Positions 7,547 to 37,338 of a stretch of 64,000 nucleotides of DNA are shown piece after piece; position 1 is the first letter of the stretch, and the number at the start of each line of letters is the position of its first letter. Location of the stretch: the NCBI GenBank assembly GCA_051453625.1, contig JBOZIK010000001.1, forward strand, positions 44,061,536-44,125,535, given 5' to 3'. The stretch is from Welwitschia mirabilis (taxonomy: Eukaryota). The notes under the pieces are model-generated. The model was not told the DNA's origin. It made no database searches and saw only the letters and a program-made list of their open reading frames with translations. The translations under genes and the position numbers were made by a program.

Positions 7547-8589
7547 ACTGTCTTGTACTATTTTTATTGTAATGACATTATGAATCTCTTGAGGTTGAGG
7601 CTATCTCTTATATAGTCCATTTATAATTAAGTACTACTGAAAAGCATTGTTAGTTGTAGTTATGGAGGGGATGTAGGCTTTGATGAAATTTAATAATGTA
7701 GTTAGAACCTAATAACCCAAGAAATTTAAATTAGTAATTAAATGAATAATTAAAGGATAAGCCAGGAGCATTTAAGAAATATTTTTTTAATTTACAAAAT
7801 CCTTTGAATAAAAATACATCAAATAAGTTTCATCAAAAATATTTGTAAAGATATGATAACATTATTTTTGCTTATAAAGATATTAAGGATTTTTTTAAAC
7901 TAAATTAATATAAACTAGTATTATAGGATCTCATTAAATATGTTGCAGTTTAAACTAGAAAGCCACACTATAGAGAATATTTTAAATAATAAGATTGTAA
8001 AATAAAGAATCACAATACCAAATGAAAAAATAGTGTGTTGTGTCTCTACAGTTTTTTTAAACCCAAGAAAAAAAGATGCATAAATATAAATGCAATCAAA
8101 ATTTTATAGATAAAATATTCATTGCAATCAAAATAATTGAACCTAAAATATCTATAAAAAATAAAAGCTTTGAAGAGTTGTTGCAAATATTTGACAGGAA
8201 AAGAAATGCAACTTAGATTTCAACTGATTTCCTTTGGAAACAAATTCTTCTCTTGATTTGAAAAAGTCATGGTAGAAAAAAAACCAATGTTATTCTTCTA
8301 ATAGTAATAACATTCTTCTTCTTCTTACAATGTCAACATTCTTCTTACATCACTGTTCTTTTGACATTGTTTTCTTCGTTTCAGCTAATAAAATAATGTA
8401 ACACAAAATAGCTAGCTAGCAGCAAATTTTACCTCTTATGTCCTTACTTTATACTTCTTGATCATAAGTTATTTGCTTATATATAATAAATCATACAATG
8501 CAAAAATAGGTGGATCCCAAGTACTGGATCTAAATCAAATGCTAAAACTTCAAAAACATGAGCTTTCATATTCCACTGTATCCGGAGAA

Positions 8590-8705
8590 GAATCAAATGA
8601 AGTTGAAGCTGATTCTAATGAAATAGATGAAGTCAAAGCTAATCCTTATAAAATAGACAGAGTCAAAGCCCATTCTAATGAATAGAAAGAGTCAAGAATG
8701 ATCCT
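8590..8705. repeat. ~30-bp degenerate tandem repeat in the copia LTR
   Basis: About 4 units resembling AATGAAATAGATGAAGTCAAAGCTGATTCT. Also present at about 27305-27420 in the other LTR. Confidence 0.7.
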
Positions 8706-9000
8706 TATTTCCAAAATTTTGGTGGATGTACATGCAATCTAGTAGTAAGGAAATAAATGCAATAAGCATAATGAGTGCAGTTCTATCCAAGAAAGGCTAA
8801 AAAAATGTTTAATATCATAAAGGAAGAGAATTGAGATGTCAATAAACTAACTGACAAATGAATTTCATAAATGGAAGTCCTCTTTCAAATGCCAAAACCT
8901 ATATTCTTAACAATAAAAAGATAAGAATGCCAGAAGGGTGAAGGAGAGGGATAACATAACACAAATGAAGATATTGATGTTTCTTTGCAGAGGGTGAGAC

Positions 9001-9263
9001 TTAAGACTTAGTAGTGGAAGAATCATTATGGCCTAAAGGATGCTTTGTGGTGTCAATCATGTCATGCATTTCACTAATTGTCTATTCTCTTGTCTCATGT
9101 AGAAAAGATCATGCATCCTTCTTTTCTTGTTTCACCTTTGTCCTTGAATTATGGGCCACTCTAGAGGCCTTATTCTTTGCACACTATGAATTCTGCTTCA
9201 TGGATTGTCTCATATCAGAGGCCTTATAATAAACTCTCCCTTCATTTCTTGAGCTTTTCCCTA
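9001..9263 (-). pseudogene. Captured group-3 LEA (LEA_4-like) C-terminal fragment in the copia 3' LTR
   Basis: Translation with one frameshift: GKAQEMKGE..KASDMRQSMKQNS*CAKNKASRVAHNSRTKVKQEKKDA*SFLHETRE*TISEMHDMIDTTKHPLGHNDSSTTKS*. This fits the group-3 LEA pattern GKAQEK...QSAKDK.S...L.QTGEQ......D.VKHTLG. Confidence 0.72.
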
Positions 9264-9491
9264 AGCCTAAGAATATAAAATGACTTATATATTGTCTTTG
9301 GTATCCTAACCACTTCTAGAGCTATTATAATTTCGCTTGGATAACTCCTTTGGATTACTAACACGAGCATTTAGCATCCAATCCTTGCTTTGAATGTTAT
9401 TTTCGGAGCCATCAATCCAGATGTATTTGATAATGATTTTCTCAGTGCATTGAAAGATATTGAGGTTAAGTAAATCATTCAAAAAATACAT
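9264..9491 (-). pseudogene. GLN1: Captured intronless cytosolic glutamine synthetase (GS1) N-terminal fragment, codons 1-76
   Basis: MYFLNDLLNLNIFQCTEKIIIKYIWIDGSENNIQSKDWMLNARVSNPKELSKRNYNSSRSG*DTKDNI*VILYS*A, colinear with plant GS1 [76 protein letters not shown]. Confidence 0.93.
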
Positions 9492-9831
9492 GCTACATCT
9501 TTCTTCAATCAAATAAAGAACTCGAAATTGGCTGCTACAATTCCACCTTGTGCAGAGTTATGATATAGACATTAGACCACTATTGAAGAGGAAATATTTT
9601 AAGCTAATCTCTATTAAATTTTGATGTTTTAATGGAAATAAATAAACCAAAAGATGGAGAATCACTTAAAAAGTTTATAGCAGAGAGAAATAAAAGGAAT
9701 ACAGACATTCTACAAATGTATAAAAATGGAATGCAAGTTTGTGATTTTTCTTCAGCTGGGATTGAGGACATTATTAGGCTGGTGTCATGCAATGATTTCT
9801 TAATCCACTTTGATTTTTGCATGACACAGTA

Positions 9832-10180
9832 TGTTGGAATTTTCTTTGGGTAATTCCAACAATTTAATGCTAGTATGAATATAGAATAGATTTATTGAGT
9901 AAATAGAGTTAGTGGGTCAATTACAAAAAAGAAAGAAAATAGTTATTAAGTTAATAGAGTTAGTAGATCAATTACTAAAAAGAAGAAAAATGGTTATTAA
10001 CTTAGTATAGTTAGTTGATCTATTACAAAAAGAAGAAAAACTATTATTTCCTTTGTATGCCTATAAAAGACTATCTAGTTACATCAAATAAAATTGGACT
10101 CCCAGGTGGGATTCCATTCACGGGACTTCTTTTGGAGCAACAATTTTCTATTTAGTTTTTTTTCTCTCTTATTATTAACA
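9832..10180. mobile_element. 349-bp solo LTR inserted in the copia 3' LTR
   Basis: Absent from the homologous site in the 5' LTR (about 28405). Termini TGTT...AACA. TSD CAGTA (9827-9831) / TAGTA (10181-10185). Contains a 3x ~51-bp tandem repeat (about 9891-10041) and CCTATAAAAG. Confidence 0.85.
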
Positions 10181-10205
10181 TAGTAAATAATAGATACTAG
10201 GAGAT

Positions 10206-10357
10206 AATCATATTTTTGTAACTAATAAAAAGCAAGTTCAATTCCTCCGTAGTAAGTTTCACATCCAACTTGGTAACTTTTTTCATTGCATCCATTAATA
10301 ACACTTAGCTTGCTTAGCAGGTTTCACCATGTAAACATGATTTCCCCTCTCTGTCAT
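10206..10357 (-). pseudogene. Captured 14-3-3 N-terminal fragment (epsilon-group-like) in the copia 3' LTR
   Basis: MTERGNHVYMVKPAKQAKCY / MDAMKKVTKLDVKLTTEELNLLFISYKNMI versus canonical [51 protein letters not shown]. A short frameshifting deletion follows RY. Confidence 0.92.
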
Positions 10358-11089
10358 TTTCAAATCATAAGTAAAATTTCAGCTCTCAACAAGAGATCAT
10401 TCTCTGAGATTTTATTACATTATTATTGTTGTGTGAATAGGAAATAATAATAATATTATAATGAAGAGGTATTAAAAGGATATAGGATTTATTTAGGTGG
10501 TTTTAAGCAAAGTGAATGGGGTTCAATACATAAACGGTAAAATGAATATGTTGTAAACATAGTATATTATGTCAAATAATAATTGATAATGGATTAATGG
10601 GGTTGGATATTATGATGATTATGAGAATAAGATAATAATCAGGCCCATAATTATACATGTAATTATGCATTGTAATGATGATTTTGATTGCATAGGATTT
10701 TCTAGTTCTAAAGTTTAACCTACACATTTCCTAAACATATTCATGATGTCATTTCTCTTTTTCACCATAATGTGAACTCCTAAAAAAAACCTTGCCCTTT
10801 TAGGTTTTCAAAGAAAAAAGGAGTTGGGATGGGCTACATCCAACTAGCATAGTGATAAGTTGAATCATCACACTTGAGCTGGGCAGTGAGAGGTAGACTA
10901 ATTACAACATCATACCTATATGAACATAATAATACTATGAACTTAATAGCATTAAGATAAATTTAATGTAGTTATGGGAAAATACCAACAAACCCCCCTT
11001 TAACATTAAGGTTATAATTTATTATATGTGAAAATAAGTAGGAAGAAAGAAAGAGAATGTTACAAGTTTAGCTGTTACAACAACATTAT

Positions 11090-12129
11090 GTTATGAAAAA
11101 GATGAGCTACTAAATCCCATGACCTTAATGTCAAGGATATTCAACTAATCATGAAGTAACTCAGATCTACTTTTGTCTAATGCCTTTGTAAAAATGTTTG
11201 CAAACTGTGCATTTGATGGATAATACTATACTGAAATCAATCCATCCTTCACTTTTACATGAACGAACTAGTACCTCATATCAGTATGTTTTGTACATGC
11301 ATGTAGAACTAGACTTGTGGTAATAGCAATAGTTGATTAGCTATTACAATGAAGTGTAATTAGATCACATACTATAATAGTAAACTCAATAAATAACCAT
11401 TTAATCCACACAATCCATTAATAGGGTAAATAAACTGTTATGTACTCTGCTTTAATTATGGAAAGTGTCATACTTGATTGCTTTTTACTACATCAAAAGA
11501 ACAAACAATCACCAAGAAGCATTGCATAACCTATAGTGCTCTTTCTATCATCAAGATAACCTATTCAATCTACATCCACAAATTCTTCTAATTATATATT
11601 ATTACTAGATTTATAAAATAATCCATGATGTAATGTGCCTTTCACATATTTTAATATTCTTTTGATTACTAAAAGATGTGCATGTTTAGGGGCATTCATG
11701 AATCGAGAAGCAACACTAAGAGCAAATTGAATATCTAGTTGAGTAGTAGTTAGACATATTAAACTTTTAATCATAAAATGATATAAATAATCTTTAATAA
11801 AAATGATTATCCATGTCTCTAGTTAATTTTATATTGGTATCCATTGGATTAGAGATAGTTTACAATTATGCATTTCAAACTTTTAAAGCATGTCATGTTT
11901 AAATTTGAACTAGTTTAAGAAGATCCCATTAGGGAGTTGGTGAATTTTAATTCCAAGATAATAAAACAGCAAGCCAAGATCGATCATTTTGAATTCATAT
12001 TTCATATCATCATGAAATTGTCAAACCAAAGAATTATGTGTTCCTTCAAAGATAATTTCATCATTATAAATCAATATAAATAACATATGATGATTGATTA
12101 TTTTCTATATAAAGTAGTTTCAAAGGAAT
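11090..12129 (-). pseudogene. Copia RT C-terminal part and RNase H, decayed
   Basis: Motifs FKMIDLGLLFYYLGI, SLICLTTTQLDIQFALSVASRFM..P...H....KRILKYVKGT, TKHTDMRY and QFANIFTKAL. Confidence 0.92.
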
Positions 12130-12134
12130 ATTTT

Positions 12135-14644
12135 TTAATTTTCATCTTTTCATAACTTAAAGCTTTAAATGTTTCTCTAATACCAAAATGTAACATCTTA
12201 AATCTACATCTCAAAAATATTTAACTTGTAATAAATGAGCTAAAAGATAAAATTTACACCATTAGGACTTAAACCCTTAACTCCTTGTTTAATAGTAACT
12301 TATCTTAACCATCTAAGCTAAGTGTACACATAAAATTATTTTCATTATAAAGCATAAATAATCTATGGCCTTAATTACAAGTTATTATAATTTAACATGT
12401 TATAACTCAAGTTATGTTTCACAATTAAATAGCCTATAAAGCACAATTATAGATTTACTTCTTAAAATAACTTTTAGCAAGGAAGAGAAAACAACTTAAA
12501 ACTCTCATAATTTTCTTCAACAAAAGGCACATAAGTACATAAATCATAAATCTATAAATAATTCTTAATGTCAAATAAAATTGAGTTTTATAAATAACAT
12601 CATGTCAATAAATATTATAAGTTACTAGGACATCCAAGGTTCTTCAATTTTAACTATTATATATATATATCAAGTAAGGAACAACATGTAGGGGAAACTC
12701 AAATATTGTTACAACCACTAGCTCTTTCTAGCATCTTCATTTACACCGAGTCCTGCACATGCAAGTATGATGTGAGAACTATAACCTTCACATTTCTTAG
12801 TATGACGCATGGCAATGAATAGATAGGTATAGGATTTCTAAGTATAAAGTAAATAATTACAAGAATATCCAAGATGTACTACTAAAATAATCCAAAATGT
12901 ATTATCAAAAAAATCTGAGATGCATGACCTAAAAAATCCAAGATGTATAGTTAGAGTAATCTAAGAGTGTAATACCAAAATAATCTAAGAATTTCCCAGG
13001 ACTTTATTTTCATATTATCTTTTTTACTATTGATCTATAAAAATTTAAGTAATCTAGTTGCACACAATTAAGAGGGTTAAAATTATCATATTTGTGTACC
13101 TTTTTTTTCTTTTCTTTCTGGAGGCTCAGTTCTAATACCTTAGGACTCATACCATAGAGTATCACTCTCTGATGTTTGAATAATTGATTACCCTGGCCAG
13201 TTTTAATTCTTTTATTTAACAATATTAAATCATGGTCAATGGTTATTACAAGTCATATATAGATAATCCACAACAAGCTTGTCAACAAGGCTTAATCCAA
13301 ATTAGAGTTAACAAGATAGGTAAAGGTTTTGTGATGTATAAAACCCTAAGAAACTAAGATACAGAGGTTCATAATAAGAGGAATACTTGCAAACTCTAAA
13401 AATGATTTACAAGATACTAATGAAAGCTTTATGAAATATTTAAATCGTGCAAGTATTATAAGAAAAATTTGGAACCATGTAAGAAATAAAAAGAATATGC
13501 TAGAATTATACAATAATTAAATAAATTATTCTAGATCCATTCCCAAAATTGGACGAAGACTTTAAGTCTTTCAAGACTCTAATGCTTTTTATGCTTCAAG
13601 TTTTGAAATCACCAAGATTCAATAATAGAATATTTCTCAAAGATATGAAAATAAGAGTAGAAGTCAGTCCTATTCATAGCAAGAGGATGTAGAAATGTGA
13701 AGAGAGATGAAGACATTAAGAGGCATTATCAAGAAAAGAAGATGGTAAGGATTCTATAACCCTTAATCATTACCTTGTTTAGCCACTAGATGTATTAATA
13801 TTTCATCATAATAATAAATAATAAATGTTCAACATCCCACTACTACAATTATTATGATAATAAATTAAGATAAGCCACTTAGCAAGTAATTCCAATANNN
13901 NNNNNNNNNNNNNNNNNNNNNNNNNNNNNTGTTAAATAATAGAAATTGCAACATCATAATTATGAGTGTTACTTCGCATACACGACTAAGATAAAATATT
14001 AAAATAAACTAGCATAATGCATTCTAATAATTATAGCAATTAAAAGAGTAATTTACATGCAATAAAATAACAAAATAAGAAAATATAGTAATCATAATAC
14101 ATTAATGCAACAATTTCAAAAAAGAAAATAAAATAATATAACCACTAATTTAGTGACTAATTTAGTCACTAATTCAGCCACTAATTTCGCCACCAATTTA
14201 GTTACTAATTTAACCAAGGGGTTACTATAAAAATAATATTATTATATATGCTTGTTACAAAAAAGAAAAAACTTAAAATAATAATTATAGCATGAAAAAT
14301 TATTACAAACTAATCACATCTCAATAATAAAATAATAAATAGAGAATAAATAAAGAGTACAGTAATTAAATTAGCTTAATGGACTCCATAATAATAAAGT
14401 TTTGGCACATCCCAAGAAATTTATGAACATTATGCAATTCAAAAAAATAGAATGGAAAAAATATCTAATACATACATTTGAACAACTGTAGGCTATATTC
14501 TTTTTAATCGAGAAATTGAAAAAGCTTTTCTATCTTTTTCAAAGCTTTTGGAATCCCCTCAAATAAACCCAGTTTATTTTTAATTTATCTTTTACTTAAC
14601 TAATTAGGCTAAATATTTGGACCTTTAAAAATCTAGAGATGACA
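12135..14644 (-). repeat. 3' LTR of element B
   Basis: Colinear with 20678-22958. Contains a ~23-bp tandem array (about 12860-12990) and a 12-bp CCACTAATTTAG array (about 14142-14212). Confidence 0.88.
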
Positions 14645-14714
14645 TTTCTCCACCCCTTAAAAAGTTTCATCCTTGAAACTTGAAAAAAAAAAATCTTAGT
14701 TCTTTACCATGATA

Positions 14715-14920
14715 CATTTATTTTATATTTTCAAGTAGCTTCTGTTTTTGTCTCTCTTAATTGTTATACTTTATAAAGTTGAATTTATCTTCCTTTGAGT
14801 ATAGCTTTCTCTTGAATTAAAATTTTAATTGGTTAAACTTCAAATGTGCAGCTTAGTTCAATATCCACTTCTTAACTATCTCATTACAAATATCAAATTT
14901 ATATCTTTGGAACTTAATGC
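14715..14920 (-). pseudogene. Integrase C-terminal chromodomain remnant of element B
   Basis: EVDIELSCTFEV*PIKILIQEKAILKGR*IQLYKV*QLRETKTEAT* resembles Tekay ...LTYEEEPVRILDRKEKVLRNKVIPLVKVLW....EEATWE and lies just before the PPT. Confidence 0.65.
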
Positions 14921-17900
14921 AAAACCCATCTCTAAAGAACTTCAAAATGACTTGCTATAAGAAAATAACTTAAAATGATAAATAATATTTGGTTAAATAA
15001 ATCTTCCTTTAATGCCATGTAAATTATTAAATAAGGTGAAATTTTACCCATAAAACTTGTTAATCAATGATATTATTAATCATGATAAGTATAATACTAA
15101 TCACCCTTTGTGTTTGGAATGTTTAAGCCTCTACAAATTTTCTTCCTATTTTGTTATCACACTTTGTTGTTAATTGGCTTTTCTACTCTAATTGATAGTA
15201 GTGGAGGATGGTCCTCACATGAACACATGGCTTCTACAGCAAAAACATTGTACATACTTCTATACAAGTTATCTCACATTGTTTTGTTAATAATTGAAGC
15301 CAAATCTTCTTTCACTTTTCTTTTACTAAGATGGATAAGTGTTCTAATAGATCTAATGATAAATTATTTAATAATTTTAAAATCTATGCTAATTTCCACA
15401 TCCAAGAGCATTTCACCACCTAAATCATTTCATCAATTACAACTTCAAGAAGGCCTTACAAAGATGGGTTTGAAGACTTTTTCCACAAATAATATAAATA
15501 CTCCATTCCTTTACCTATTACTTTCCTATATATGCATTATACTCAAGTGGATAAACCTATATCTTATAAGTTCATACTTCCATTCCAACAAAAATGGAAA
15601 ACAAGATTCTATGAATACCAAGAATGAATAATCTAAAAATTATTTTTAATTAAAATGGGAATATCCAGTCAAAAAATAAATTTCCAAAATACATACTTTA
15701 GAAAAATATGGACATATTCCATACCAATTAAGATCTAACATGAAAGATATACAAGAATATAGAGAAAGAAAAACTTATTAATAATAATTAATAATCTTAA
15801 AACCTTAATACTAGAGGACATTGAAAAATATGATGAATGCAAACCAAGATCATGTTCATGGCTGATATTCTATAACGAAGCAAATGATAAAAAGGAACAA
15901 AATACCAATGGTTATCCTTCTCTTCATCTTCGAAGGCTTGATAGTATAAGAGAACTTTAAGGGAAGCACATTGCTATATCTTGTTTATAAGATTAACTAG
16001 AAAAGATGTGCTTTCTCTTTTTCAAGATACCTTTCAGCATATTCAAATCCAGATATAAAATAACCTAAGGAAAAATTCAAAAATTATTTTACTAAGAAAT
16101 ATAAAATTTTTTATCTTGAACTCTCACATAATCAAATATGAAAATATGGATTTCAAGAAAATATAAAATATTATTAAAATACTATATAATGTGTATTATA
16201 CAAGGCATGCTAAATATGGTGCATATTTAATGAATAATATTATGAAATATGTTGTGGAATTAGAATGGGTATGATGGATTAATAAGAGAATCAAATGAGA
16301 TAAGAGTTAACACTAATAATATTGATAGGAACCAAGGTTTAACTATCAAGCNNNNNNNNNNNNNNNNNNNNNNNNNNNNNNNNNNNNNNNNNNNNNNNNN
16401 NNNNNNNNNNNNNNNNNNNNNNNNNNNNNNNNNNNNNNNNNNNNNNNNNNNNNNNNNNNNNNNNNNNNNNNNNNNNNNNNNNNNNNNNNNNNNNNNNNNN
16501 NNNNNNNNNNNNNNNNNNNNNNNNNNNNNNNNNNNNNNNNNNNNNNNNNNNNNNNNNNNNNNNNNNNNNNNNNNNNNNNNNNNNNNNNNNNNNNNNNNNN
16601 NNNNNNNNNNNNNNNNNNNNNNNNNNNNNNNNNNNNNNNNNNNNNNNNNNNNNNNNNNNNNNNNNNNNNNNNNNNNNNNNNNNNNNNNNNNNNNNNNNNN
16701 NNNNNNNNNNNNNNNNNNNNNNNNNNNNNNNNNNNNNNNNNNNNNNNNNNNNNNNNNNTTAACACTAATAATATTGATAGGAACCAAGGTTTAACTATCA
16801 AGCATCAAGGCCCATTAATAGCAAGAATACATAGAGATATATTCAAGATATGTGACCTTTAATCCTACTTTCATGATTATTAATATCTTCTCCTCCTATT
16901 TGGAACTTAAGAATCCTAAATATGAGATTTAATAATCTCAAAATGTAATAACCATTGAATTTCATTTCTTACTTTTCATAATACAATGACTATAATCAAT
17001 ATAAATAATAAAATAAGATGCTATACAAAACGTAAATGAAGCAATTACAAAGGATCAAAAAAATAAATCAAGAATTAGTAAAATCATGTTTTTCAATTCA
17101 GGAATCTAAAGAATTAAATAACCTAGTTATACTGATTCAATGATGCATTTCTAAGATGATTGTAAAAGAAAACAAGCTCTAAAATATGAGGAGGACATGT
17201 AATGAAAATCACATATATAACTATTAAAATAAGTTTGACAAACTGATACATGTTATTTAGTAAAAGAGCCTCCTAAAAAAAAGAAAAAGAAAAAGAAAAA
17301 CATAACTGTAAGCAACAATAAGACATTGAAATATTCATAAAATACACTACCATCTAGAGTCTTTCTAAATAAACATAAATATTTATTTATAGAATTCTAG
17401 ACATTAAATCTTTAGAAGAAATAATTAAATCATTTTTAAGTTTAGAATTTTATTTTAAATTGATATTTTTTAAAGGAAATGCAATAGAATTCTATGAGAG
17501 ATGAGGAAGTCAATTACCTAATTCCCTTATACTTTTAATTAAAGATCACATAATGCAAGGGCCATGATATAGAGTCAAAATATACTAGGCAATGTACCAT
17601 ATAAACCAATAAGAATGACAATGAAAGTCATTTCCATTTTATGGAATTCTTAGTTAGGATTCTAGTAAATGTTGTAAAGTAAATTTGTGTTTGAATCAAT
17701 AGGAATTGTAAGATGGAGAAGCCATATATGATTTGAACAAGGGTACATACTTCTATAATCATAACATTAATTATCTTTACATTGAATCATAACTACAACA
17801 TCAGAATGTCAAAAATTTGACTACCCTACAGTGCCAGAGTAATCATTACCCTTTCTCTCTTAAATAGATCAATGGTTTTCTAATCAGTAATAAGTCAGTT

Positions 17901-20677
17901 TCAACATAGAAGTTTCAAACAGATGCTTGGAATACAAATCTATCTTGAAATTGAATGCAAGTTGAAGTAAAAAGGAATCATGTAAAATCAAATACATTAG
18001 CATTATATGCTTATTTAAGGCATAACATGCTCATATAAAGCTTACTAACTGGGAACCTTTAACATCGTGGAAAAAGGCATCTTGTACTACTATGCTTTCT
18101 TGAGCTTGGCTGAAAGACTCTTCTAATGATTAGGAAATGTTACAATCCTAATCATTTAATTAGAGATTTAATTTACATTTAATATTTTTCATCCCATTAA
18201 AATATCCACATGTATAGAATAATCACAGAATTCTTGGTAAAGAATTAAACTTTAGTTCATGCTACTTTATTAAGCCTTGTATAGTGACAGTTCAATACAT
18301 ACTTCAGGATAAACCTATTAAAGTATTGTAAGGAATCTGCAATAAATTTATAATAATAAAAACTGATGTTTCTACTATTTTCTAATTAATCTACCTAGTC
18401 ATATTCAACATTTCAATGATATGAGATTTTCATTACATATTTCTCTTAAATCCTTGAGTTAAGAGCTTATAATAGTGTTGTACTTAAGAATAAAATAATT
18501 CTTTTCTTTACATCCTATAAATGGTTTTGAATGCACATGAAATTTCCAAAGGTTTCATGATCTCCATTCCTGATGATATGTTTCTATGAAAAACATCAAT
18601 GATAACATTTTACTATCTTCTTCCAACAACATTACTTAGCTTATTACTTCTCTTTTTACTTCCCTTATTGTCATTACTTTAGACTCCTAATAGAATGTTG
18701 AATCTTTTAAAGGAAAGAACCATGGCAAGGGGACAATAATGCAAGAGGACCCCAACATGTAAATCACAGTAACATGGGTCATAGAAGTGAGCTAGATGTT
18801 CAAAATTCTAAATAAAAAGTACCACTAAAATTGTAAACATTGAATACTATACCAACCCATTATTTTTCCTTTCTGTTTATTGTCTATGTTGTAGTATTTT
18901 ATTTCTTGAAAGATACAAGCTTACCGGTAACTCCATTGTAAAGCCTATTCTTGGCAAAATCAGTACCAGTCTGGTTTTACCACAAAGTCCATCAGAAGGT
19001 TGTAAGTTAGTACTTTTAATTAAAATGATCGATCAACACTAGGTTTTGGGGAAGCTCACTCATGTCTTATAGAGAAATAACTTTTCTAGGCATTGTGTGT
19101 TTTCTTTAAATCTTACTCTTATGTTTTTATATGATTTAAAGTATGTTGCTTAGATTTTCTTCTAATGTTTTAATAAAGTTCAATTGTAATTATATTGTAG
19201 AGATATTAGAAGTTATAAACCCTTATTCTATAGATAGTTATAGGTTGGTACATGCTTGGAAGAACTAGTAAAGGAGAATATTCAACTATTGTAAATAGAG
19301 GATATAAAGAAGCAAGAAAAAAAAGGAGTTTTTTATTGATATCAAAAATGGTAGACTTCTATTAACCACCAAAAACAAATGCAATATTTGATGCTACAAT
19401 TAAATAGCATTGTGTGGTCTATTTTTTCCAAGAATTATTAACATCCTTGATTAAGATGTTTTATCATACTTTAGCACTTATTAATTATCTTGGTTAAAGT
19501 CTTAAAGACTAGTTGTTACAAAGATGTAGAAATGGTGTAGTGAATTGATTCGAGGTGAGCAAAGCAGTAGCACCAAAGTCGATTCCAACCATGCTCAATG
19601 GATTTTCACTAGACATTAATATTATCATATCATTCCTTGATAATATAGAAGAAAAATATCTTCTTAACATGTCTAAATTAGAATCATAAAATTTGTAACT
19701 TGGATATCCATATTGCAAGGCATCTCCTCTAAATGAATAACTCAAATTCTGACACCATGAAGAAATCATAGATGTCTTGCAAGATCTTACTTCCTCATAC
19801 AATGCAGACTTGTAAGTGAAAGGTTCTATTGTGTGGAGCTGAAAAGTTAGTATTTCATATACCTATATCTCTATCTATCTATTATTTCTTTATATGTGTT
19901 TTAGAATTGCTAAAATCCTAACTTCTCTTCTAGCTTGAAGCTTGCTACTAGTTGTCATAATGATGAGAATATGAGGATTTCTTATAGCTCAAAACTTAAG
20001 TCCTTCATGTATTCATTCAATCTAGTGCAAGAGATTTTAGGAATTGCTAATGCATTTTAAGACCAAATTAATCCCTTATTTCACTTGAAAGTTCTATGAA
20101 ATATAGCCAAGATTCTTCTAATCATTATTAATTTCAAAAACTCATATACCTTTCTATAATCTTAACAAAATCCTAATTATGTTCCCTTTTAATTTCTTAC
20201 ATTTATTGTTCTTTTGATTCTATTAAAGAGCATGTAGCATATAAAATATAAGAAATGCTATATTAATGAGTATTAAGCAATGCCTAAAAGGATATACTAG
20301 AATATTTCAAATACCACAATGTTAATACTTGAATTATATATCACTCACTCTCTTAGATGTTCTTGCACTCATAAAATTCCTTCATATAGCGTCATCAGAG
20401 TAGTGTTACATGTAAATAATACCTTTTAATCCATCATATTATTTTAGTAGATTAACATAATCATCACATCATTAGTTGCCATTTGGAACTTATAATTATT
20501 ATGACATATTAATATATATTTCTAGGTTCATTATGCTTCGGCTTTTTCCTTCATAACATATGCCCATTACGCAATTATGCCTAATGAAACCATAACCTAG
20601 GCTCTAATGTTAAAATGTATAATGGCTTCACAACCATTATTCCTAGTGAAATCAAAACTTAGACTCTAATACCAAAA

Positions 20678-22958
20678 TGTAATATCCATCTCTTCACAAC
20701 CTAAAGCTTCAAATGTTACTCTGATACTAAAATGTAACACCCTGAATCTACATCTCAAAAATCTTAAACTTGTAACAAATAAGCCCAACAATAAAATTTA
20801 CACTATCAAGACTTGAACTTTTAACCTCTTGTTTAATAGTAACTTATGTTAACCATCTAAGCTAAGTGTACACATAGATTTATTTTCATGGTAAAGCATA
20901 AATACTTTGTTGTCTTAAGTATAAGTTATTATAATTTATCATGTTATACCTTAAGTTATGTTTCATAATTAAATATCCTATAAAGCACAATTATAGATTT
21001 ACTTTTTAAAATAGCTTTTAGAAAGTAAGAGAAAGTAACTTAAAACTTTCATCATTTTCCTCAACAAAAGACATGTAAGTATATTACTCATAAATTTGTA
21101 AACAATTCTTACTACTAGATAAACTTGACCTTCATAAATAACATCGTGTTAATAAATATTACAAATTACTATGACATCCAAGGTCCTTCAATTTTAAGTA
21201 CCACATGCATCAAATAAAGAATAACATGAAGGTGAAACTAAACTCTTATTACAACCACTAGTTTTCATCATCTTCAATTGCAACAAGTCCTGCACATGCA
21301 AGTATGATGTAAGAAATATAACCTTCATAGTTCCCAGTATGGCCCACAGTAAGGAATAGATAGGTATAGAATTCCTAAGCATAAGGTAAGAAATTACAAG
21401 AATATTTAATTTATATTATCAAAATAAGTTAAGACATATTGCCAAAACAATCTAAGATGCATTGCCAAAACAATCCAAGATGTATAGTCAAAATAATCCA
21501 AGAGTGCAATGTCAAAATAATCCAAGAAGTGATCAAATTCTCATTTTCATATTATCTTCTCTACTATTGATCCATAACAATTTAAGTAATTTAGTTACAT
21601 ACAACTAGGAGGGACAACATCATCATATTTGTGCATATTGTTTTCCTTTTCTTCCTAGAGGTTAGGTCTTGCTACTTGGTACTCATAATAGAGAGTATCA
21701 TTCTCTAAGATTTAAACAACTAGTTACCCTAGCTAGTTTTAATTCTTTTATTTAACAATCTGAAGTCATGACCAATGGTCATCATAAGTCATATACAGAT
21801 AATCCATGATAATCTTGTTAACAAGTCTTAATCCAAATTGGGGTTAACACAATGGGTAAAGGTTTTATGATGTATAAGATTCTAAAAAACTAAGACAAAA
21901 TAGGTTTACAATAAGAACAAGACTTACAATCTCTAAAAACAATTTGTAAGATAATAATGAAAGCTTTATGAAATACTTAAATCATGCAAGTATTACGAGA
22001 CAAATTTGGAACCATGAAGAAATAAAAAAATATATGCTAAGATCATATAAGAATTGAAGAAATTATGCTAGGGACATACTCAAAATTAGATGAAGACATC
22101 AAGACTTTCAACACTTCAATGCTTTACAAGCTCCAAGTTTTTAAATCAACAAGGTTCAATAACATAATATTCCTTAAAGATATGAAAATAAGAGGAGAAA
22201 AAAGTCCTATTTATCATAAGAGGATTAAAGGATGTGAAGAGACACGAGAGTATGAAAAGACACCATTATGAAACGAATATGGTAAGAACTCCATAATCAT
22301 TATCTTGTCTGGGTGCATTAATATTTCATTATAACAATAAATAATAAATGTTCAGCATTTTGCTACTTGCAATTATTACAATAAGGAATTAAGATAAGCC
22401 ACTTAGTAAGTACTTCCAATAGCCATATAAAAATTATTTTTCATAATCTATAAATATTAAATAATAGAAAATGCAACATCATAATTAAATAATAGAAAGT
22501 GAAACATCATAATTATGGGCATTACTTAGCATGAACTACTAAAATAAAATATTAACATAAACTAACATAATGCATTCTAATAATTATAACCATTACAAGA
22601 ATAATTTTCATGTAATAAAATAAGAAAGTATACTAATCATAGGATATTAATGAAATAATTATAAAAAAGGAAATAGAATAATATAACTACTAATTTGATC
22701 ACTAATTTAGGTAAGGAGTTACTACAAAAATAATATCATTAATTATGTCAATTATAAGAAAAAAATCTAAAATAATAATTGTAGCACAACAAATTTTAAA
22801 AAGCAGATACATCTCAATAATAAGATAATAAATAGGGAATAAATAAAGAATATAATAATTAAATTAGCTTAGTGACCTGCATAACAATAAATTTATTTTA
22901 ATTTATTACTTAAATAATTAGGCTAAATTTGTGGACCTTTAAAGATCTAGATGTGACA
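20678..22958 (-). repeat. 5' LTR of element B
   Basis: TGTCACATC...TATTACA on the minus strand, followed by TTT and TGGTATTAGAGT. Confidence 0.88.
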
Positions 22959-25900
22959 ATTTTTTATAAGATTAATTTTTTAAATATGTATCAAGACATG
23001 CAAACCATGCTCTAGGGGCTTGTTTTAATTCATAAAGTGCCTTCCAAAGTTAATAAATGCTCTTTTTTTACCCTAGATTTTGAAACCCTTTAGTGGATTA
23101 ATGTATACCTCTTCATCTAAGTAGCCATTTAGAAATGCTAATTTAACATCCATTTGTCAAACCTTCATATGAATTTTACACGCATATTCTAAAAAGGCTT
23201 GAATAGATTCTAAATGTATTACTGATGCATATGTTTTTCCATAATCAACTCCTACCTCTTGTGCATAATCCTTAATAAAAATTCTTACTTTATGTTTGTT
23301 AATTATGTTATCAAGATTGTACTTTATATGAAAGATCCAGTTTGTTCCAATTAAATGTTTATTAAAAGGTAGTTTTACTAATTTTCATCTATTATGATTT
23401 TTTATTTGACTAAATTCCTCTTTCATTACCTTTATCCAATGAACAAAAGAAGCAACATTTTATATTTAATTAGATCAATAGAAGCATTTAAGGAGATAGA
23501 TTTAGCACACAAGTTTATTTCATTATTGTTCTCACGGAGTTCATCTAAAGATGTGATGTTTTCATTTTTCCTTTGATTTTTCAGATTTTATAGTTGTTTT
23601 CTAGTTTTAACTCTTGTAGGTAGAGGTTCATGAATGTTGCTTTAATCATGTGATTTTAAAATTCTTGAGCCTTTCTTAGGTGTGGTTATACTAGATGATG
23701 TGCTAGTTATTATTTCATTTTTAGAATCACTGCTAAAGTCATCATTACTTTACATTGGATGAATTTGATTTTCTAAGAAATGCACATTACAATTTTTAAT
23801 TATTTTTCTATCACTCAATCTAAAACATATATATGCCTTGCTAATGGATGAGTATCTAATAATACATTCATCTAATTTAACATTTAATTTATCATTTATA
23901 GGTTTAACATTTTTAACATATCATTTTAACCCAAAAATTTTAAGATGTGCTACATTAGGATTTTTTCCAATTTTTATAAGGAGTTAAATCAACTAAATGC
24001 TTTATGATTTAAGATTTTGTAGATAGTTGTGGCATTTATTGCTTTTGTCCAAAATTCATTTTCTAAGTTAGCTTCAAGAAATAATGTTCTTATCATGTCA
24101 AGTGATGATCAATTCTTATGCTCAGTTATCCCATTTTGTTGTGGTGTATAGGCAATTATTTATTGATGTATAATACCATTTTTAACTAGGTATTGTGTGA
24201 GTTCTCTAGAAAAAACACTCCAAATCTATCGGTGCATAGATTTTTTATATTCTTGCTTGTTTATTTTTTAGTCCATGCTTTGTATCTTTTAAAGTATTCA
24301 AATGCTAGAAATTTAAATTTTAGAAAATAAATTACACATAAGTATGAACAGTCGTCAATGAAGTTATAAACTATTAACTTTCATTAAAAATAAGTGTATG
24401 CATGGAATCACAAATATCTACATGTATAAGTGAAAGTTTTTGTGATATATGTTCTATAGATGGAAAGGATTTTCTAGCTTACGTTTCTTTTATACATGTT
24501 TCATAGCTATCTATTTTTTCGATTCTCAAATGTGGTAACTTCCTTCTTGAACTTTTTCTTTAACATCATTTCAATTTATATTAAGGATGCATGTCCTAAT
24601 CTTTTATTCCATAACTAAAAATCATTTATGTTTCAAATTAATGTAGGTTTAAAGTTCATCTTGTAAATATTATTTGATGTTCCCTTAACTTCTAATGTTG
24701 AACCATCCTTTTTTAAGATGCACTTTCCTTCCATAAATTTCATCTCAAATCCTTTACATTCTAATTAATCAAGGCTAATCAAGTTGTATTTTAATCTTAG
24801 TACATAGATGACATCATCAATAGTGATTTTATTTTCCCTTTCATCCTTAATGATGATGGTTCAGTTTTCACTAATATTGACAATTCCATCTCCTTCAAAT
24901 CTTATTGGAGCTCCTTTAAAATTTTTAGATGATTGAGAAAAGTTCTTTTAATATGTCATATGATGTGAACAACCATTATCTAAATATCATAAGTTATCAT
25001 TTGTGGCTAAAAATATGAATGGTTTTAACTCTTTCTATCTTTCTCAATAATTGTAACAAATGACAAGTGATCTTGTTCTTGTTGTGATGTTTTATCTTAC
25101 TTCTTATTATCCTCCTATTGATTATTTACTATAAAATCATTCATTGGCATTTCATAATCTCTCATTAATGATTTATAAATTTTCCATGGGTGTTCTATTT
25201 TTTGACAGTAGTGACATACTAGTGACTTATTATAGCCTTATTATGTAGTCCATTGGTTTTGATTATATATGTTTATGTGTGTAAATTTCCCCTTCCTCTT
25301 GTGTTTTAAAATCCTCTACCTCTCACGTTCTGTTGCTATAAATTATTTTAGTTAAGATGCTACCCACTTCCTTGATTATTTAATTGGAAGTGTGATGGAT
25401 TTCTTCCTCTACCTCTTCCTCTAAAATTCATACCTCTAAAGGTTATTCCTCTTTATTATGTGTTTTGAAGCTTCCTATTTGCTATATTGGCTCCCTCTAA
25501 AGTTAACTGCTCTTTACTTGTAACAAGTACCCTAAGATCTTTCTTTTATTTCTCCATTAATCTTAATTCATATTACACTAGTATACTTGTTAACTCATCA
25601 ACTGTAAGAGTGCTTAAATCCATAAAGTTTTCTATTATGACTGCAATTTGGTCATTAGTTTGTGTTTAAGATTCTTCAAACTTTTAACACCTTTNNNNNN
25701 NNNNNNNNNNNNNNNNNNNNNNNNNNNNNNNNNNNNNNNNNNNNNNNNNNNNNNNNNNNNNNNNNNNNNNNNNNNNNNNNNNNNNNNNNNNNNNCACCTT
25801 TTTCTTTTCTGAAACTGTTTGTCCTTGTTCCTCAATTTATTTTGTAATGTCTTGAATTTGTTGTTTGTATTCTTATATTCCCTCATTTTCTTTCATTTTG

Positions 25901-26250
25901 ATTTTTTTAAATTATGCCCTCCAATATTAAAGTTTTACTTTCCTTACCTTGGTTTAATTCTTATAAATAATATCTAAGTCATTTCAAAGTTTAAGCCCAC
26001 TATTATAGTGTTGAATCTTTTTGAATTCTGAGTTTAGCATGCTTGTGTGAATGATTATCATTAGTTTACTATCATCAACCTCTGCTCTATTGTAATCCTT
26101 TTTATCCTTATCTGTGATTGGAAGTGGAATTAGTTCAAAATCTATTTGCATTTTGTTCCACAATTCTTGTTATTTAAGATACCTTTCCATTCTAGCCTTC
26201 CAAATGTCATAGTTTTTTAGATTGAAATCTAGCATCATTCCCTTTTCCAT
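22959..26250 (-). pseudogene. Copia gag-protease-integrase-RT (N-terminal part), decayed
   Basis: gag MEKGMMLDFNLKNYDIWKARMERYLK*QELW; protease YLDNGCSHHMT (about 24960-24990); integrase TFIDD and AYTPQQNGITEHKN (about 24115-24155); RT DVKLAFLNGYLDEEVY and LYELKQAPRAWF. Many stops and frameshifts. Confidence 0.93.
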
Positions 26251-27704
26251 TTTGATTATGATGTGATTTAATAGATTGTGTAGTTCAGATCTTTATTAAG
26301 TAACAAATTTCATATTATTTCATGTTGTTATTTGTTATTTCCTATTCATCCTCTAAATTTGATTTTCAAATGTGTGGTTCTGATACCAATTATAGGTTTT
26401 GATGAAATCTAATAATGTAGTTGGGACCCAATAATCAATAAAAGCTAAATAATTTAGTAAATGCATAGTTAAGTACAAAGTAAAAGAATTCAAGAAAATA
26501 TTTGTTTAATTTACAAAATCCTTTTGAATAAAAGTACTTCAAATAACTTTGATCAAAAATATTTGTAAAGATATCATAACATTATTTTCAATTATAAGGG
26601 TATTAAGGATTTTTTAACTAAATCAATGTAAACTAGTATTATATATTTCTATTAAATATGTTGTAGTTTAAAATAGAAAGCCAAACTACAGAGAATATTG
26701 AAGTAATAGGCCGTGAAATAAATAATTACAAGACCAAATGCAAAAATTGTGTGTCGTATCCTCATAGTTTTTAATCCTAAAAAAATGCATAAAAATAAAT
26801 GCAGTAAAAATTCTATAGATAAAATACAAATCACATTAGAATGATTGAAACTAAATAATCTATAGAAAATAAAAACTTCAAAGATTTGTTGTAAAGATTT
26901 GATAAGAAGAGAAAGCAACTCAGATTATGACTGATTTCCTTTGGCAACAAATTCTTCTCTTGATTTGAAAGACTCACAGTATCAAAAAACTAGCATTCTT
27001 CTTCTAATAGTAATAATGTTATTATTTCTTTTACAATGTTAACATTCTCCTTACATTAGTATTCTTCTAATAGCATTCTCTTCCTTTTAGCTGGTAAAAT
27101 AATGTTAACATAAAATAGCTGAGCAGTAGAAATTTCACCTCTTAACTTATGTCCTCACTTCATACTTTTTAGTCATAGAATTTTTTTTTGCCTATTTATA
27201 ATAAATCATACAATGCAAAAATAGGTGAATCCAAAATATTAGATCTAAATTAAATGCTAAAGCTTTAAAAAGATGAGATTTCAAATTTCACTAGAGCCAA
27301 AGACAAATCAAATGAAGTCAAAGTCGATCTTGACAAAATATATAGAGTCAAAGCTAATTCTAATGAAACAAATGAAGCCAAATCTAATAATGGCAAATAG
27401 ACAGATTCAAAATTGATCCTTATTATCAAATTTTAATGGATGTGTGCATAATCTATTAATGAGAGCTTAAATGTAACAAGCACAACTAGCATAGTTATAA
27501 CACTTTAGGAAGGCTAAAAGAATGCTTAATATCATAGAGGAAGAAAATTAAGATGTTAAGATACTAACTAAAAAATGAATTTCATTAATGAAAGCCCTCT
27601 CTCAGATACCAAAACCTATATTCTCAACAACAAAAAGATAAGAATGCCAGGAGGGTAAAAAATAGGGATAACCTAGCATAAATAAAGGTACTGATGTTTC
27701 TTTG

Positions 27705-27834
27705 CCTTTATTCCTCAATTATGGACCATTCTTAAGTCCTTATTCTTTACACACTATGCATTCTAATCCACATATTATCTCATATTAGAGTCCTTTTGTT
27801 GTGACTCTCCCTTTATTTCTTAATCTTTTCCCTT
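27705..27834 (-). pseudogene. Second copy of the LEA fragment, 3'-deleted
   Basis: KGKD*EIKGESQQKDSNMR*YVD*NA*CVKNKDLRMVHKLRNK. The segment equivalent to about 8990-9135 is missing. Confidence 0.68.
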
Positions 27835-28063
27835 GACCTAAGGATATAAAATGACTTTGTTATAATCTCTTATAGCCTATCTAGTGCTAGAGCCATCGTA
27901 ATTCCACTTAGGTAAATCCTTTTGATTACTAATAGGGGCATTTAGACTTTGCCCCTTACTTTGAATTTTGTTGCCAGAGCCATCAATCCATATGTATTCA
28001 GTAATGATTTTTTTGAGTGCATTCAAAGATATCGAGATTAAGAAAATCATTCAAAAGAGACAT
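27835..28063 (-). pseudogene. GLN1: Second copy of the intronless GS1 N-terminal fragment
   Basis: [18 protein letters not shown](+1)[56 protein letters not shown], with intact EYIWI.GSG and [11 protein letters not shown] motifs. Confidence 0.95.
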
Positions 28064-28425
28064 GATTTCTTATTTCTTTAAATAAACAAAGAACTCCAAA
28101 TGGACTGTCAGAATTTCACCTTGTGTAGGTTTATGATATAAACATCTAGCCTCTAATAAAGATAAAATAGTCTGAACTAATCTTCATCATGTTTTGATGT
28201 TTTAATGATAATAAATTAATCAAAATACATAAAATCACTTAGAAATATTATAGTGGAGGAGAAATGAAAGGAATATGGACATTCTGCAAATGTCTAGAAA
28301 TGGCATTCAAGTTTGTGTATTTTCTTTAGCTAGGATTGAGAGCACTATTAGACTAGTGTTATGCAAGGAAGTCTTAGTCCACTTTAATTTCAGCATGATA
28401 CAGTAACTAATAGAGACCGCTAGGT

Positions 28426-28575
28426 AATCATATTTTTGTAACCAATGGAAAGAAAGTTCTGTTCCTCCATAGTAAGTTTCATGTCCAACTTGGTAACCTT
28501 TTTTATTACATTCATCAATAATGCTTGGCTTGCTCAATGATTTTTGCCATATAGACATAATTTTTCCTCTGTCAT
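28426..28575 (-). pseudogene. Second copy of the 14-3-3 N-terminal fragment
   Basis: NYVYMAKIIEQAKHY / MNVIKKVTKLDMKLTMEEQNFLSIGYKNMI, with the same deletion after RY as the first copy. Confidence 0.92.
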
Positions 28576-28856
28576 TTTCAAATTAGAGGTAAAATTTTAG
28601 CTCTTAATAAGAGATCAATCTATGAGATACTATCACATTCTTATTATTGTATGAATAGGAGATAAGAATAATATTATAATTAAGAGATATTAAAAGGATA
28701 TACGATTTATTTAGGTGGACTTTATGTAAAGTAAATAAATTTAAGTAAATGAAGGGTAAAAAAGTATGTTGTAAAAGAAATGTGTTATGTCAAATAATAA
28801 TTGATAATGGACTAATAGGTTTGGATATCATGATTGTTTTGAAAATAAACAATAAT

Positions 28857-36700: not shown

Positions 36701-36960
36701 ACAGTAAGTACATTCTAATGGCTCTATTAATATTTTTGAATTAGAAACTTCAAAAATTTAATGGATAAAGGTTAAAAATATATGGAAAGTACATTCTAAT
36801 GTCTCTTTTGAGATTTATGACTTAGATACTAAGGAGATTTAGAAAGTTAATGGATAAAAGTTAAAAATATATCAGAAACCATTTGATGCAACCTTGAACA
36901 TGATAGAAGCAAGTGTTTTTGAGGTTCCCCTCAATGGGAAGAACTTCCCCCTTATCATTT
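30707..36960 (+). pseudogene. Athila-like gag-pol, decayed (gag, PR, RT, RNase H, integrase)
   Basis: gag DQDPFQHI; RT WVSPLTVVPKK..WRMCMNFRNLN and IFINDFSIY; RNase H AQPNYTTTEKEML; integrase HGSICGGHF, WGIDFIG, VDYVTKWVEA and AYHPQTNGQA. RT-RH-INT order. Ends are approximate. Confidence 0.92.
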
Positions 36961-37289: not shown

Positions 37290-37338
37290 AACAGAGAGAA
37301 AGAGAGAGAGGGAGGAAGGGGGGGAGGGAAGAGAGAGA

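Follow-up and report, generated by a model that had tools for sequence, protein, structure and literature searches.

Fragments of 14-3-3 and glutamine synthetase genes within both LTRs of an ancient, dead Ty1/copia retrotransposon of Welwitschia mirabilis

The window analysed here, a 64,000-nucleotide stretch of the Welwitschia mirabilis genome assembly, holds an ancient, dead plant Ty1/copia retrotransposon that occupies 7672-43165 on the minus strand and is flanked on both sides by the 5-bp target site duplication (TSD) TCCCC (Table 1). Direct LTRs, a primer-binding site (PBS), a polypurine tract (PPT) and, between the LTRs, protein domains in the order gag, protease, integrase and reverse transcriptase (RT) bear out the proposal of the initial annotation that both repeats belong to a single Ty1/copia element as its LTRs. 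The 3' LTR still has TG..CA ends and those of the 5' LTR have mutated to TA..TA; the PBS matches what we take to be the initiator-Met tRNA site usual in plant Copia elements, and no PPT is present upstream of the first part of the 5' LTR (42811-43165). Divergence between the LTRs (K2P ~0.18-0.26) shows that the element is very old. The LTR had first been placed at 8850-10440, which is right as to location but too short in extent, since the LTRs run over 7672-10990 and over 26391-28856 plus 42811-43165, with a length of ~2.97 kb once a later insertion into the 3' LTR is subtracted. The element as a whole is thus larger and more broken than first described, being dead today and interrupted by two large nested insertions.

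Table 1. Features of the Ty1/copia element, of the cassette with host-gene fragments in its LTRs and of later insertions (positions within the window).
Feature	Position	Strand	Evidence or remark
TSD TCCCC, 5' LTR side	43166..43170	-	abuts LTR start at 43165; same pentamer abuts LTR end 7672
5' LTR, first part (Y), 355 bp	42811..43165	-	84% identity to 10640-10990; likeness begins exactly at LTR start
Nested Ty3/gypsy LTR retrotransposon, 13.9 kb, in Copia 5' LTR	28857..42810	+	LTRs 28857-30035 and 41657-42810
5' LTR, second part (core), with cassette copy B	26391..28856	-	78.7% identity to 7672-10639
14-3-3 fragment, copy B	28423-28565	-	Pfam 14-3-3, E 5.2e-4
GS1 fragment, copy B	27880-28063	-	E 3.3e-14 (match at 27880-28017)
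LEA-like remnant, copy B	27705-27879	-	alignment with copy A
PBS TGGTATCAGAAC	26377..26388	-	2 nt past 5' LTR
Copia internal part 1: gag, protease-region barrel, integrase, first half of RT; degenerate	22895..26376	-	Pfam
Nested LTR-bounded element, 10.8 kb, splits Copia RT	12136..22894	.	LTRs 12136-14401 and 20680-22894; K2P 0.223
Copia internal part 2: RT end, RNase H region, PPT	10991..12135	-	RVT_2 positions 158-238 at ~11852-12095
PPT AAAGGGGGG	10993-11001	-	directly before 3' LTR start TGTTGG at 10990
3' LTR, 3319 bp at present	7672..10990	-	TG after PPT, CA before TSD; homologous to both 5' LTR parts
14-3-3 N-terminal pseudo-fragment, start codon to ~residue 52, one frameshift	10203..10357	-	Pfam, PDB
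High-copy repeat, post-integration insertion, only in 3' LTR, outside cassette	9832..10181	.	absent from 5' LTR
Segment between 14-3-3 and GS1	9492..9831	-	in both LTRs
Cytosolic GS1 N-terminal pseudo-fragment, residues 1-75, 3 in-frame stops, no gap	9264..9491	-	PDB E 3.8e-14
LEA-like segment, adjoins GS1	9001..9263	-	LEA resemblance by eye only
TSD TCCCC, 3' LTR side	7667..7671	-	directly past 3' LTR

Self-comparison of the window gives a triangle of similarities in which one region (A) consists of Y and core, a second (B) of X and core and a third (C) of Y and X, with X being a 1.2-kb block present at 28857-30035 and 41657-42810. This pattern is resolved by a nested Ty3/gypsy element that splits the Copia 5' LTR and has LTRs (TG..CA; K2P 0.258), a PBS (starting with TGG, after 30035), a PPT (a purine tract before 41657) and a TSD (ATAAT/ATAAC) of its own. 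These same features rule out that X is a part of the Copia LTR that was deleted from the 3' LTR, a reading also countered by the 3' LTR being an exact empty site for the nested insertion and by a plus-strand RT_RNaseH match (PF17917) between the two X copies. Another Copia pol around 30-33 kb or 43-45 kb was also considered and then discarded, as 35 peptides of the element used as tblastn queries had the LTR-start region at 42816-43137 as their sole match. The inner LTR-bounded element matched no Pfam family over 14300-20800 on either strand, and a gag-pol within this repeat pair was rejected on this count. The repeat inserted into the 3' LTR is bordered by a direct repeat of ~7-8 bp and reaches a read depth of ~700, compared to ~1 in the cassette described below.

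The element had been credited with a full gag-pol, and this holds for the order of its domains but not for its coding capacity. Internal part 1 matches DUF4219, Retrotran_gag_2, Pol_BBD, gag_pre-integrs, SH3_retrovirus and RVT_2 (profile positions 4-145) spread over three frames, with gag, Pol_BBD, gag_pre-integrs and SH3_retrovirus all 5' of RVT_2 on the minus strand as in the Copia order; the integrase core domain (rve) gave no Pfam match at E 0.1. Each frame of 22895-26390 contains 108-111 stops in ~1165 codons, and the RVT_2 match breaks at profile position 145 to pick up at position 158 across the 10.8-kb nested element. Stops, three-frame scatter and a split RT are therefore what is left in place of the intact coding capacity of an autonomous, potentially active element.

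Each LTR contains a cassette of ~1.0 kb in which fragments of two host genes can be recognized, and both had been named correctly in the initial annotation. The more strongly matched one comes from cytosolic glutamine synthetase (GS1), whose N-terminus is found in the 3' LTR (copy A), where residues 2-75 align with residues 2-75 of the enzyme at E 3.8e-14, and in the 5' LTR (copy B) at E 3.3e-14. The five best chains for this piece are all glutamine synthetases (E 4e-14 to 6e-10) and presumably plant enzymes (maize 2d3a and others). The other fragment is a 14-3-3 N-terminus, for which Pfam PF00244 matches both LTRs (E 9.6e-4 and 5.2e-4) at profile positions 15-47 with scores of 19-20 bits, below the gathering score of 33.2 bits as expected for a piece of only 31 amino acids, and a PDB search returned 14-3-3 epsilon at E 2.7e-5. 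Another 20 residues of the 14-3-3 N-terminus lie colinearly in the adjacent frame. This frameshift is common to both LTRs, whose alignment has no indel there, and the 14-3-3 piece was therefore already non-coding at integration. Chance similarity in AT-rich repeat DNA is refuted for GS1 by matches of E ~1e-14 in two independently decayed copies and for 14-3-3 by two copies whose matches agree in profile positions, plus the colinear piece in the adjacent frame; as an account of the protein similarities in general it deserves next to no credence, though it may apply to the LEA-like piece alone, which has no significant match.

Indeed, the group-3 LEA C-terminus that had been read at 9001-9263 could not be substantiated: this stretch matched no Pfam family at E<=5 and no PDB entry at E<=10, yielded no candidate in a word-index search and, in an exhaustive phmmer search of 1.84 billion representatives, found two matches, both long repetitive proteins classed as non-LEA by Pfam and BLASTP. 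Part of it lies in a stretch that is missing from copy B (8989-9134). The segment at 9492-9831 probably includes the GS1 5' UTR and gave no Pfam, PDB or Atlas identification on either strand. An 81-aa antisense ORF within this region (9608-9850, plus strand), which is partly open in the other LTR, was set aside as a chance match (PDB E 1.2, Atlas <=0.89). A search for further gene pieces in the LTR, using the plus-strand frames of 7600-11000 and the minus-strand frames of 7600-8900 (seven sequences), matched no Pfam family.

Self-BLAST and alignments agree with the earlier reading that the order of 14-3-3, intervening segment, GS1 and LEA-like piece is colinear in both LTRs, and both matched pieces are sense-oriented relative to the element. 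Given its presence in both LTRs, the cassette was in the integrated cDNA and hence, as had been proposed, part of the integrating element. It is not an assembly artefact, since public contigs under two different organism labels cover 9233-9861 and 10147-10633 with 1-4 differences. The cassette was claimed to explain a large part of the long LTR, which overstates its share of one third of the ~2.97 kb; the match to host genes covers two of its four segments and only ~380 bp of it. All pieces are full of stops, and no ORF spans them. Mean column identity between copies A and B is 89% in the 14-3-3 stretch (233 columns) and 77% in the GS1 and LEA-like part. The 89% compare to 78.7% for the LTR core, which would be the place to look for gene conversion from one LTR to the other after integration of an element with a single cassette, though nothing specific speaks for such an event and the GS1 and LEA-like part is as diverged as the LTR backbone, just as expected if both share the age of the insertion; we consider this scenario highly improbable.

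How the cassette was acquired is best approached through the GS1 piece, of which 74 codons align without a gap. GLN1 genes of Brassica and Arabidopsis are described with 7-12 exons per ~356 codons (PMC4106436), so that at least one intron would be expected in this span, and the gap-free stretch would therefore fit RNA-mediated capture. The 14-3-3 piece is uninformative on splicing, as a single exon may hold all of it. Our best explanation, and in our judgement the probable one, is that template switching of RT onto co-packaged host mRNAs put the cassette into the LTR-forming part of the element. Inside the virus-like particle, RT would have jumped from the element RNA to abundant co-packaged host mRNAs and back while it copied the LTR-forming part (U3 or R-U5), stringing together in sense orientation the 5' end of a 14-3-3 mRNA, the intervening piece, the 5' end of a cytosolic GS1 mRNA and the LEA-like piece. 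Minus-strand synthesis would run off the 5' end of each such template and then be forced to jump, and it fits this run-off that two pieces start at the mRNA start. The normal strand transfers would have copied the LTR-forming part to both ends, so that one event could place the cassette in both LTRs and leave gag-pol intact, and the element that integrated long ago would have had ~1 kb of each ~2.97-kb LTR from host mRNA pieces. While the cassette itself is observed, we infer the RNA route, the order of switching and the sub-region of the LTR that received it.

Entry of the cassette into a progenitor LTR as DNA, either as a LINE-mediated chimeric processed pseudogene or within a gene-carrying mobile element, followed by copying to both LTRs, would account equally well for its presence at both ends, and chimeric retroposed sequences are said to be common in plants (Wang et al. 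2006, as cited in PMC2774510 and PMC13317346). Decay before integration, as this route would allow, fits the common 14-3-3 frameshift and the changes that both GS1 copies share. In a hand count over 74 GS1 positions of copies A and B and the PDB reference, 29 are identical in all three and 13 are changed alike in both copies, including two stops, next to 14 changes in A only, six in B only, 11 positions that differ in each and one ambiguous position. The common changes could reflect an old cassette or parallel C>T decay, between which the count does not discriminate; at 29-38% GC, such parallel decay is likely and makes the count weak for dating the cassette relative to integration. Against entry as DNA, the inverted repeats found are just four short AT-rich pairs of which none brackets 9001-10357, no poly(A) remnant is visible in the sequence past the last cassette piece, and all pieces lie in the element's sense direction. 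Neither the terminal structures nor the retained introns that characterize Pack-MULE, Helitron or CACTA captures are seen, and the apparently intron-less GS1 piece makes genomic capture of the Pack-MULE or Helitron type unlikely. Overall, we regard a DNA route as unlikely.

Whether the cassette ever spread was approached through raw-read depth, counted at >=80% likeness. Mean depth over 8563-9677 is 1.17 in run X14 and 0.43 in run X15, as opposed to 16.5-31.7 in the first 350 bp of the LTR and ~58-61 in RT, while two bins in the 3' part of the LTR reach 4.3-6.0. The LTR start and RT are ~20-70 times deeper than the cassette. At this likeness, the cassette sits at the single-copy floor with no sign of spread and looks like a low-copy relic, not a spreading family, and the idea that every insertion and solo LTR would disseminate the fragments finds no support next to the multi-copy state of other element parts. 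As the LTRs of the element are themselves only ~79% alike, a count at 80% would miss most sister copies as old as this one. A sub-case of the template-switching explanation is that the capture happened once, by accident, in the same replication cycle from which this copy arose and that no cassette lineage ever transposed, which we rate at somewhat short of an even chance. It agrees with the depth contrast and with a search for sister copies via short annotated ORFs, in which, across a collection of 5.8 billion clusters, the ORF that contains GS1 had no words in common with any protein of comparable length, but the limited reach of the depth count tells against it, and the common 14-3-3 frameshift would demand either an RT error in that same cycle or an earlier history. 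This frameshift hints at a history before the present insertion, and one may go further and suppose that the ~1-kb block arose in one multi-switch event from the 5' ends of abundant host mRNAs, that it left the element functional and that a Copia lineage then kept transposing for some while, its LTR including 5' UTRs and first exons of host genes, a scenario that we find distinctly doubtful.

Template-switch capture of host mRNAs by LTR retrotransposons, termed LTR-mediated retroposition or transduction, is known; it has been described as dependent on microsimilarity and can join two to four genes in one chimera (Tan et al. 2016, PMC5131818). As far as the accessible text of this work on Drosophila and mouse goes, its cases resemble ours as chimeric cDNAs of element RNA and partial mRNAs with more than two switches, possibly several parental genes and both LTRs kept, with a mouse "super" retrocopy composed of four genes plus an Alu. 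There, the captured mRNA replaced internal ORF sequence, whereas here the cassette lies within both LTRs and the gag-pol domain order is kept; capture in the LTR is thus not what that account describes, a point against our explanation. The maize element Bs1 similarly carries parts of several host genes (three, with capture put down to accidents of reverse transcription; PMC13317346) as sense pieces, intron-less as those here appear to be, in one LTR retroelement of low copy number (one to five; PMC5131818). Its pieces are reported to be internal, to replace most element genes and to form an expressed hybrid ORF, unlike the stop-riddled pieces in both LTRs of our element, which has no ORF across them and keeps its gag-pol domain order. 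Among 6,200 Sireviruses, 3% are reported to carry gene fragments and 15% of those to carry two or more (Muyle et al., 10.1101/777037); these are likewise Copia-type elements with exon fragments, but they took mostly 3' exons (64.2%), whereas the two identified pieces here are 5' ends. Baucom et al. 2009 (PMC2774510) list none of 425 LTR retrotransposons with fragments of more than one gene, and the portions of these two studies available to us make no mention of fragments positioned in LTRs. Aberrant template switching that alters LTR content and is inherited by both LTRs has been described for BARE-2 and Veju (PMC13317346), with the difference that, per the same source, their foreign sequence stems from another retrotransposon or is of unknown source, not from host mRNA. 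Literature searches found no paper joining retrotransposon, 14-3-3, glutamine synthetase and gene fragment, and a query for plant gene fragments in the U3 region of LTR retrotransposons returned one unrelated paper.

The host-RNA capture proposed here would be of a known, rare kind and unusual only by its location in the LTR, with the gag-pol domains of the element retained. The suggestions that the fragments could feed siRNAs against host genes or provide camouflage correspond to a model already published and tested (Muyle et al., 10.1101/777037, as far as its accessible text goes), and present-day siRNA cross-targeting would seem unlikely judging from the sequence because about half of the GS1 residues have changed. 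Nothing indicates a present function of this cassette copy; the window's case is a single, very old and decayed copy, a clean structural example rather than evidence of a working system. Should a cassette lineage nonetheless have existed, the LTR-borne host sequence could have been a promoter-proximal module or a silencing decoy, and every solo LTR would have scattered homology to host genes. LTR retrotransposons are known to take up pieces of host genes, though not often, and the best-studied cases are internal and in defective elements. Finding pieces of at least two host mRNAs within the LTR of an element with a whole gag-pol domain order suggests that capture can also hit the LTR-forming part, where one accident would automatically be duplicated to both ends and would ride along with later copies and solo LTRs. 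This bears on the origin of unusually long LTRs and on whether small-RNA cross-talk with host genes could originate from LTRs.

Of the three host genes that the initial annotation placed in the long terminal repeats (LTRs) of the Copia element, two are truly present, 14-3-3 and GS1, and the group-3 LEA was not confirmed. Self-comparison of the window (29% G+C, AT-rich, 14 N runs) revealed a long direct repeat of 77-80% identity, A (7674-10639) and B (26393-28856), an inner repeat pair at 12136-14401 and 20680-22894, and a third place of similarity, C, in which 42808-43163 resembles 10632-10988 and 41657-42799 resembles 28857-30024. On the right of the window stand two further, diverged pairs of direct repeats, 56749-57669/63075-63994 and 47470-48148/57244-57923, whose copies are 58-62% identical. 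Between A and B, Pfam finds DUF4219, Retrotran_gag_2, Pol_BBD, gag_pre-integrs, SH3_retrovirus and RVT_2 on the minus strand, which is the Ty1/copia order. Two nucleotides past the end of B begins TGGTATCAGAAC, which we take to be the initiator-methionine-type primer-binding site (PBS) usual for plant Copia elements. In A, the first ca. 350 bp of the LTR (Y) open with TGTTGG, and AAAGGGGGG immediately before them is the PPT; C begins to resemble Y at exactly the first base of this LTR start.

The composition of the three places (A, Y plus core; B, a ca. 1.2-kb block X plus core; C, Y plus X) first seemed paradoxical and was solved by the junction sequences. X is bounded by TG..CA ends of its own on the plus strand, a TGG-initial PBS follows its first copy and a purine tract precedes its second, ATAAT and ATAAC stand on either side of the pair where A offers the intact target, with ATAAT only once, and Pfam places a Ty3/gypsy-type RT_RNaseH between the copies on the plus strand. 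A Ty3/gypsy element is therefore nested in the Copia 5' LTR, so that Copia spans 7672-43165, with the pentamer TCCCC, a rare word for 29% G+C DNA, before its first and after its last base. The LTRs of the gypsy element measure about 1.15-1.18 kb and its PBS starts TGGCGCC; it has RT_RNaseH matches and two N runs, one of which (37439-38034) adjoins a long (GA)n-like tract that reads RERERE when translated. The RVT_2 match breaks off near 22959, at profile position 145, and restarts at 158 near 12095. One break point lies on each side of the inner repeat pair, which thus marks another nested, LTR-bounded element of 10.8 kb (approximate ends 12136-22894; LTRs of about 2.2 kb). Neither strand of its interior yielded a Pfam domain, and it is probably non-autonomous (LARD-like).

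At integration, the Copia LTR measured about 2.97 kb; the 5' copy has since lost 146 bp (the equivalent of 8989-9134) and the 3' copy has gained a 350-bp high-copy repeat (9832-10181). This insertion, confined to the 3' LTR, contains a ca. 50-bp unit repeated three times in tandem and reaches about 700 times the local floor of read depth at its centre (9892-10091); the direct repeat of some 7-8 bp at its borders points to a MITE-like DNA element. Just beyond the Copia 3' end, a very high-copy repeat (7225-7670; also 1-202 and, inverted, 3250-3427; read depth about 280-1100) looks like the LTR end of an abundant Copia or TRIM family, because reads exiting it at 7534 run into a TGGTATCAGAGC-type PBS. 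The "full gag-pol" of the initial annotation is right as to the domain order, which is complete, but not as to coding capacity, with 108-111 stops per frame over about 1165 codons and domains split over three frames.

The 14-3-3 and GS1 pieces were confirmed in both LTRs by protein-level matches. For GS1 in A, the best match among PDB chains is at E 3.8e-14, and five glutamine synthetase chains reach 6e-10 or better. The 14-3-3 profile, matched at positions 15-45 and 15-47 with E 9.6e-4 and 5.2e-4, is the sole Pfam family that any of the three minus-strand frames gave in either LTR; it stays below its gathering score, as a fragment should, and in both copies the preceding 20 residues from the start codon lie in an adjacent frame. 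As had been claimed, the cassette is colinear in the two LTRs of this single insertion, since order and junctions are identical in DNA alignments of A and B. Contigs from public runs with two organism labels span 9233-9861 and 10147-10633 with 1-4 differences; they bridge the GS1/"LEA-like" junction and the 14-3-3 region, and the arrangement is therefore not an assembly artefact.

Features of the Copia element and read depth along it (raw reads of two large runs, X14 and X15, placed at at least 80% likeness; about 1/100 of each run, orientations summed)
Feature	Position	Strand	Observation
GS1 piece	9264-9491	minus	aligns gaplessly with plant-type glutamine synthetases, residues 2-75
GS1 copy in B	27880-28017	minus	stop-free stretch, 46 residues, E 3.3e-14
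14-3-3 piece	10203-10295	minus	14-3-3 protein match, E 2.7e-5
Ty3/gypsy LTR retrotransposon	28857-42810	plus	13.9 kb, nested in Copia 5' LTR
Cassette, five bins	8563-9677		mean depth X14 1.17, X15 0.43
LTR first 350 bp, two bins			depth X14 17.4 and 30.4, X15 16.5 and 31.7
RT bin			depth X14 57.5, X15 60.8
LTR 3'-part bin	7671-7893		depth X14 4.6, X15 4.7
LTR 3'-part bin	8340-8562		depth X14 4.3, X15 6.0
Later insertion	9901-10123		depth X14 about 690, X15 about 770

The LEA C-terminus proposed for 9001-9263 on the minus strand was not confirmed: Pfam (E<=5), PDB (E<=10) and a search for word-sharing candidates all came back empty, and phmmer, run exhaustively against 1.84 billion representatives, gave two matches only, each to a long repetitive protein that has no LEA domain. 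By eye, its C-terminal residues look like the ends of small LEA/KIN-type proteins. Pfam, PDB and other protein searches gave no identity for 9492-9831, between 14-3-3 and GS1.

An insert into U3 or R-U5 during reverse transcription reaches both LTRs via the normal strand transfers, so one event is enough for a cassette in both. Most probably, reverse transcriptase (RT) switched template from element RNA onto co-packaged host mRNAs, and capture into U3 or R-U5 would then have been copied to both ends. The pieces fit this by all lying in sense direction and directly abutting, two of them beginning at the start of their mRNAs, and an inverted-repeat search found no inverted termini bracketing the block. 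The GS1 piece also lacks any intron over its whole span, where at least one would be expected because GLN1 genes have 7-12 exons (accessible part of PMC4106436). A DNA-level route, e.g., a chimeric processed pseudogene entering the LTR of a progenitor copy, is a less probable alternative to template switching.

Divergence between LTRs (K2P) is 0.182 for the first 350 bp and 0.258 for the core of the Copia LTR, 0.258 for the nested gypsy element and 0.223 for the 10.8-kb element. At 1.3e-8 per site per year, the customary rate for plant LTRs, these distances put the Copia insertion on the order of 10 million years ago, and both nested insertions came soon after. The frameshift between the two 14-3-3 parts is the same in both LTRs, with no A/B indel there, and was therefore already in the integrating cDNA. 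In a hand count over 74 GS1 positions, 29 are unchanged in both copies, 14 changed in A only, 6 in B only, 11 differently in each and 1 is ambiguous; the remaining 13 carry identical changes, including two glutamine-to-stop, most of them C>T/G>A. These may have arisen in parallel, as they do in methylated repeats, or may equally go back to a history of the cassette before this insertion.

Spread of the cassette, as envisaged in the initial annotation, was not borne out: at at least 80% likeness, a threshold that would mostly miss sister copies of the same age (this element's own LTRs are ca. 79% alike), the cassette is about single copy when the lowest bins are taken as the single-copy floor. 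Depth of the 14-3-3 bin is confounded by the neighbouring high-copy repeat. A search of a large protein collection found no similar short ORFs, which is weak evidence on sister copies. Some tens of relatives have the LTR start and coding region in common; what they share of the LTR seems limited to its first 350-400 bp, and the other 2.6 kb may be largely foreign to the family. LTR depth falls about 20-fold between 10570-11015 and 7672-10569, roughly at the gypsy entry point in the other LTR.

Template switching by RT is known from Drosophila, mouse, yeast and maize Bs1, with chimeras of up to four genes (PMC5131818, PMC13317346); in the accessible text of these sources, captures replace internal sequence, whereas here the cassette lies within the LTR and gag-pol is in place. 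The available portion of Baucom et al. (PMC2774510) gives 425 maize LTR retrotransposons with gene fragments from at least 189 captures, none of these elements with more than one gene, and that of Muyle et al. (10.1101/777037) gives fragments in 3% of 6,200 Sireviruses, two or more in 15% of those, with 3' exons preferred. The siRNA conflict and camouflage proposed in the initial annotation are, by the same portion of Muyle et al., ideas already tested there, and our measurements do not support a regulatory effect of the cassette. Our literature search found no published account of 14-3-3 and GS1 combined in a retrotransposon, nor of host-gene pieces specifically in U3 or the LTR; the surveys' supplementary tables may list some. 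The Copia element with its cassette is an old, decayed and apparently low-copy relic, and the cassette is a fresh example of a known process, unusual in its LTR location and in the retained gag-pol.
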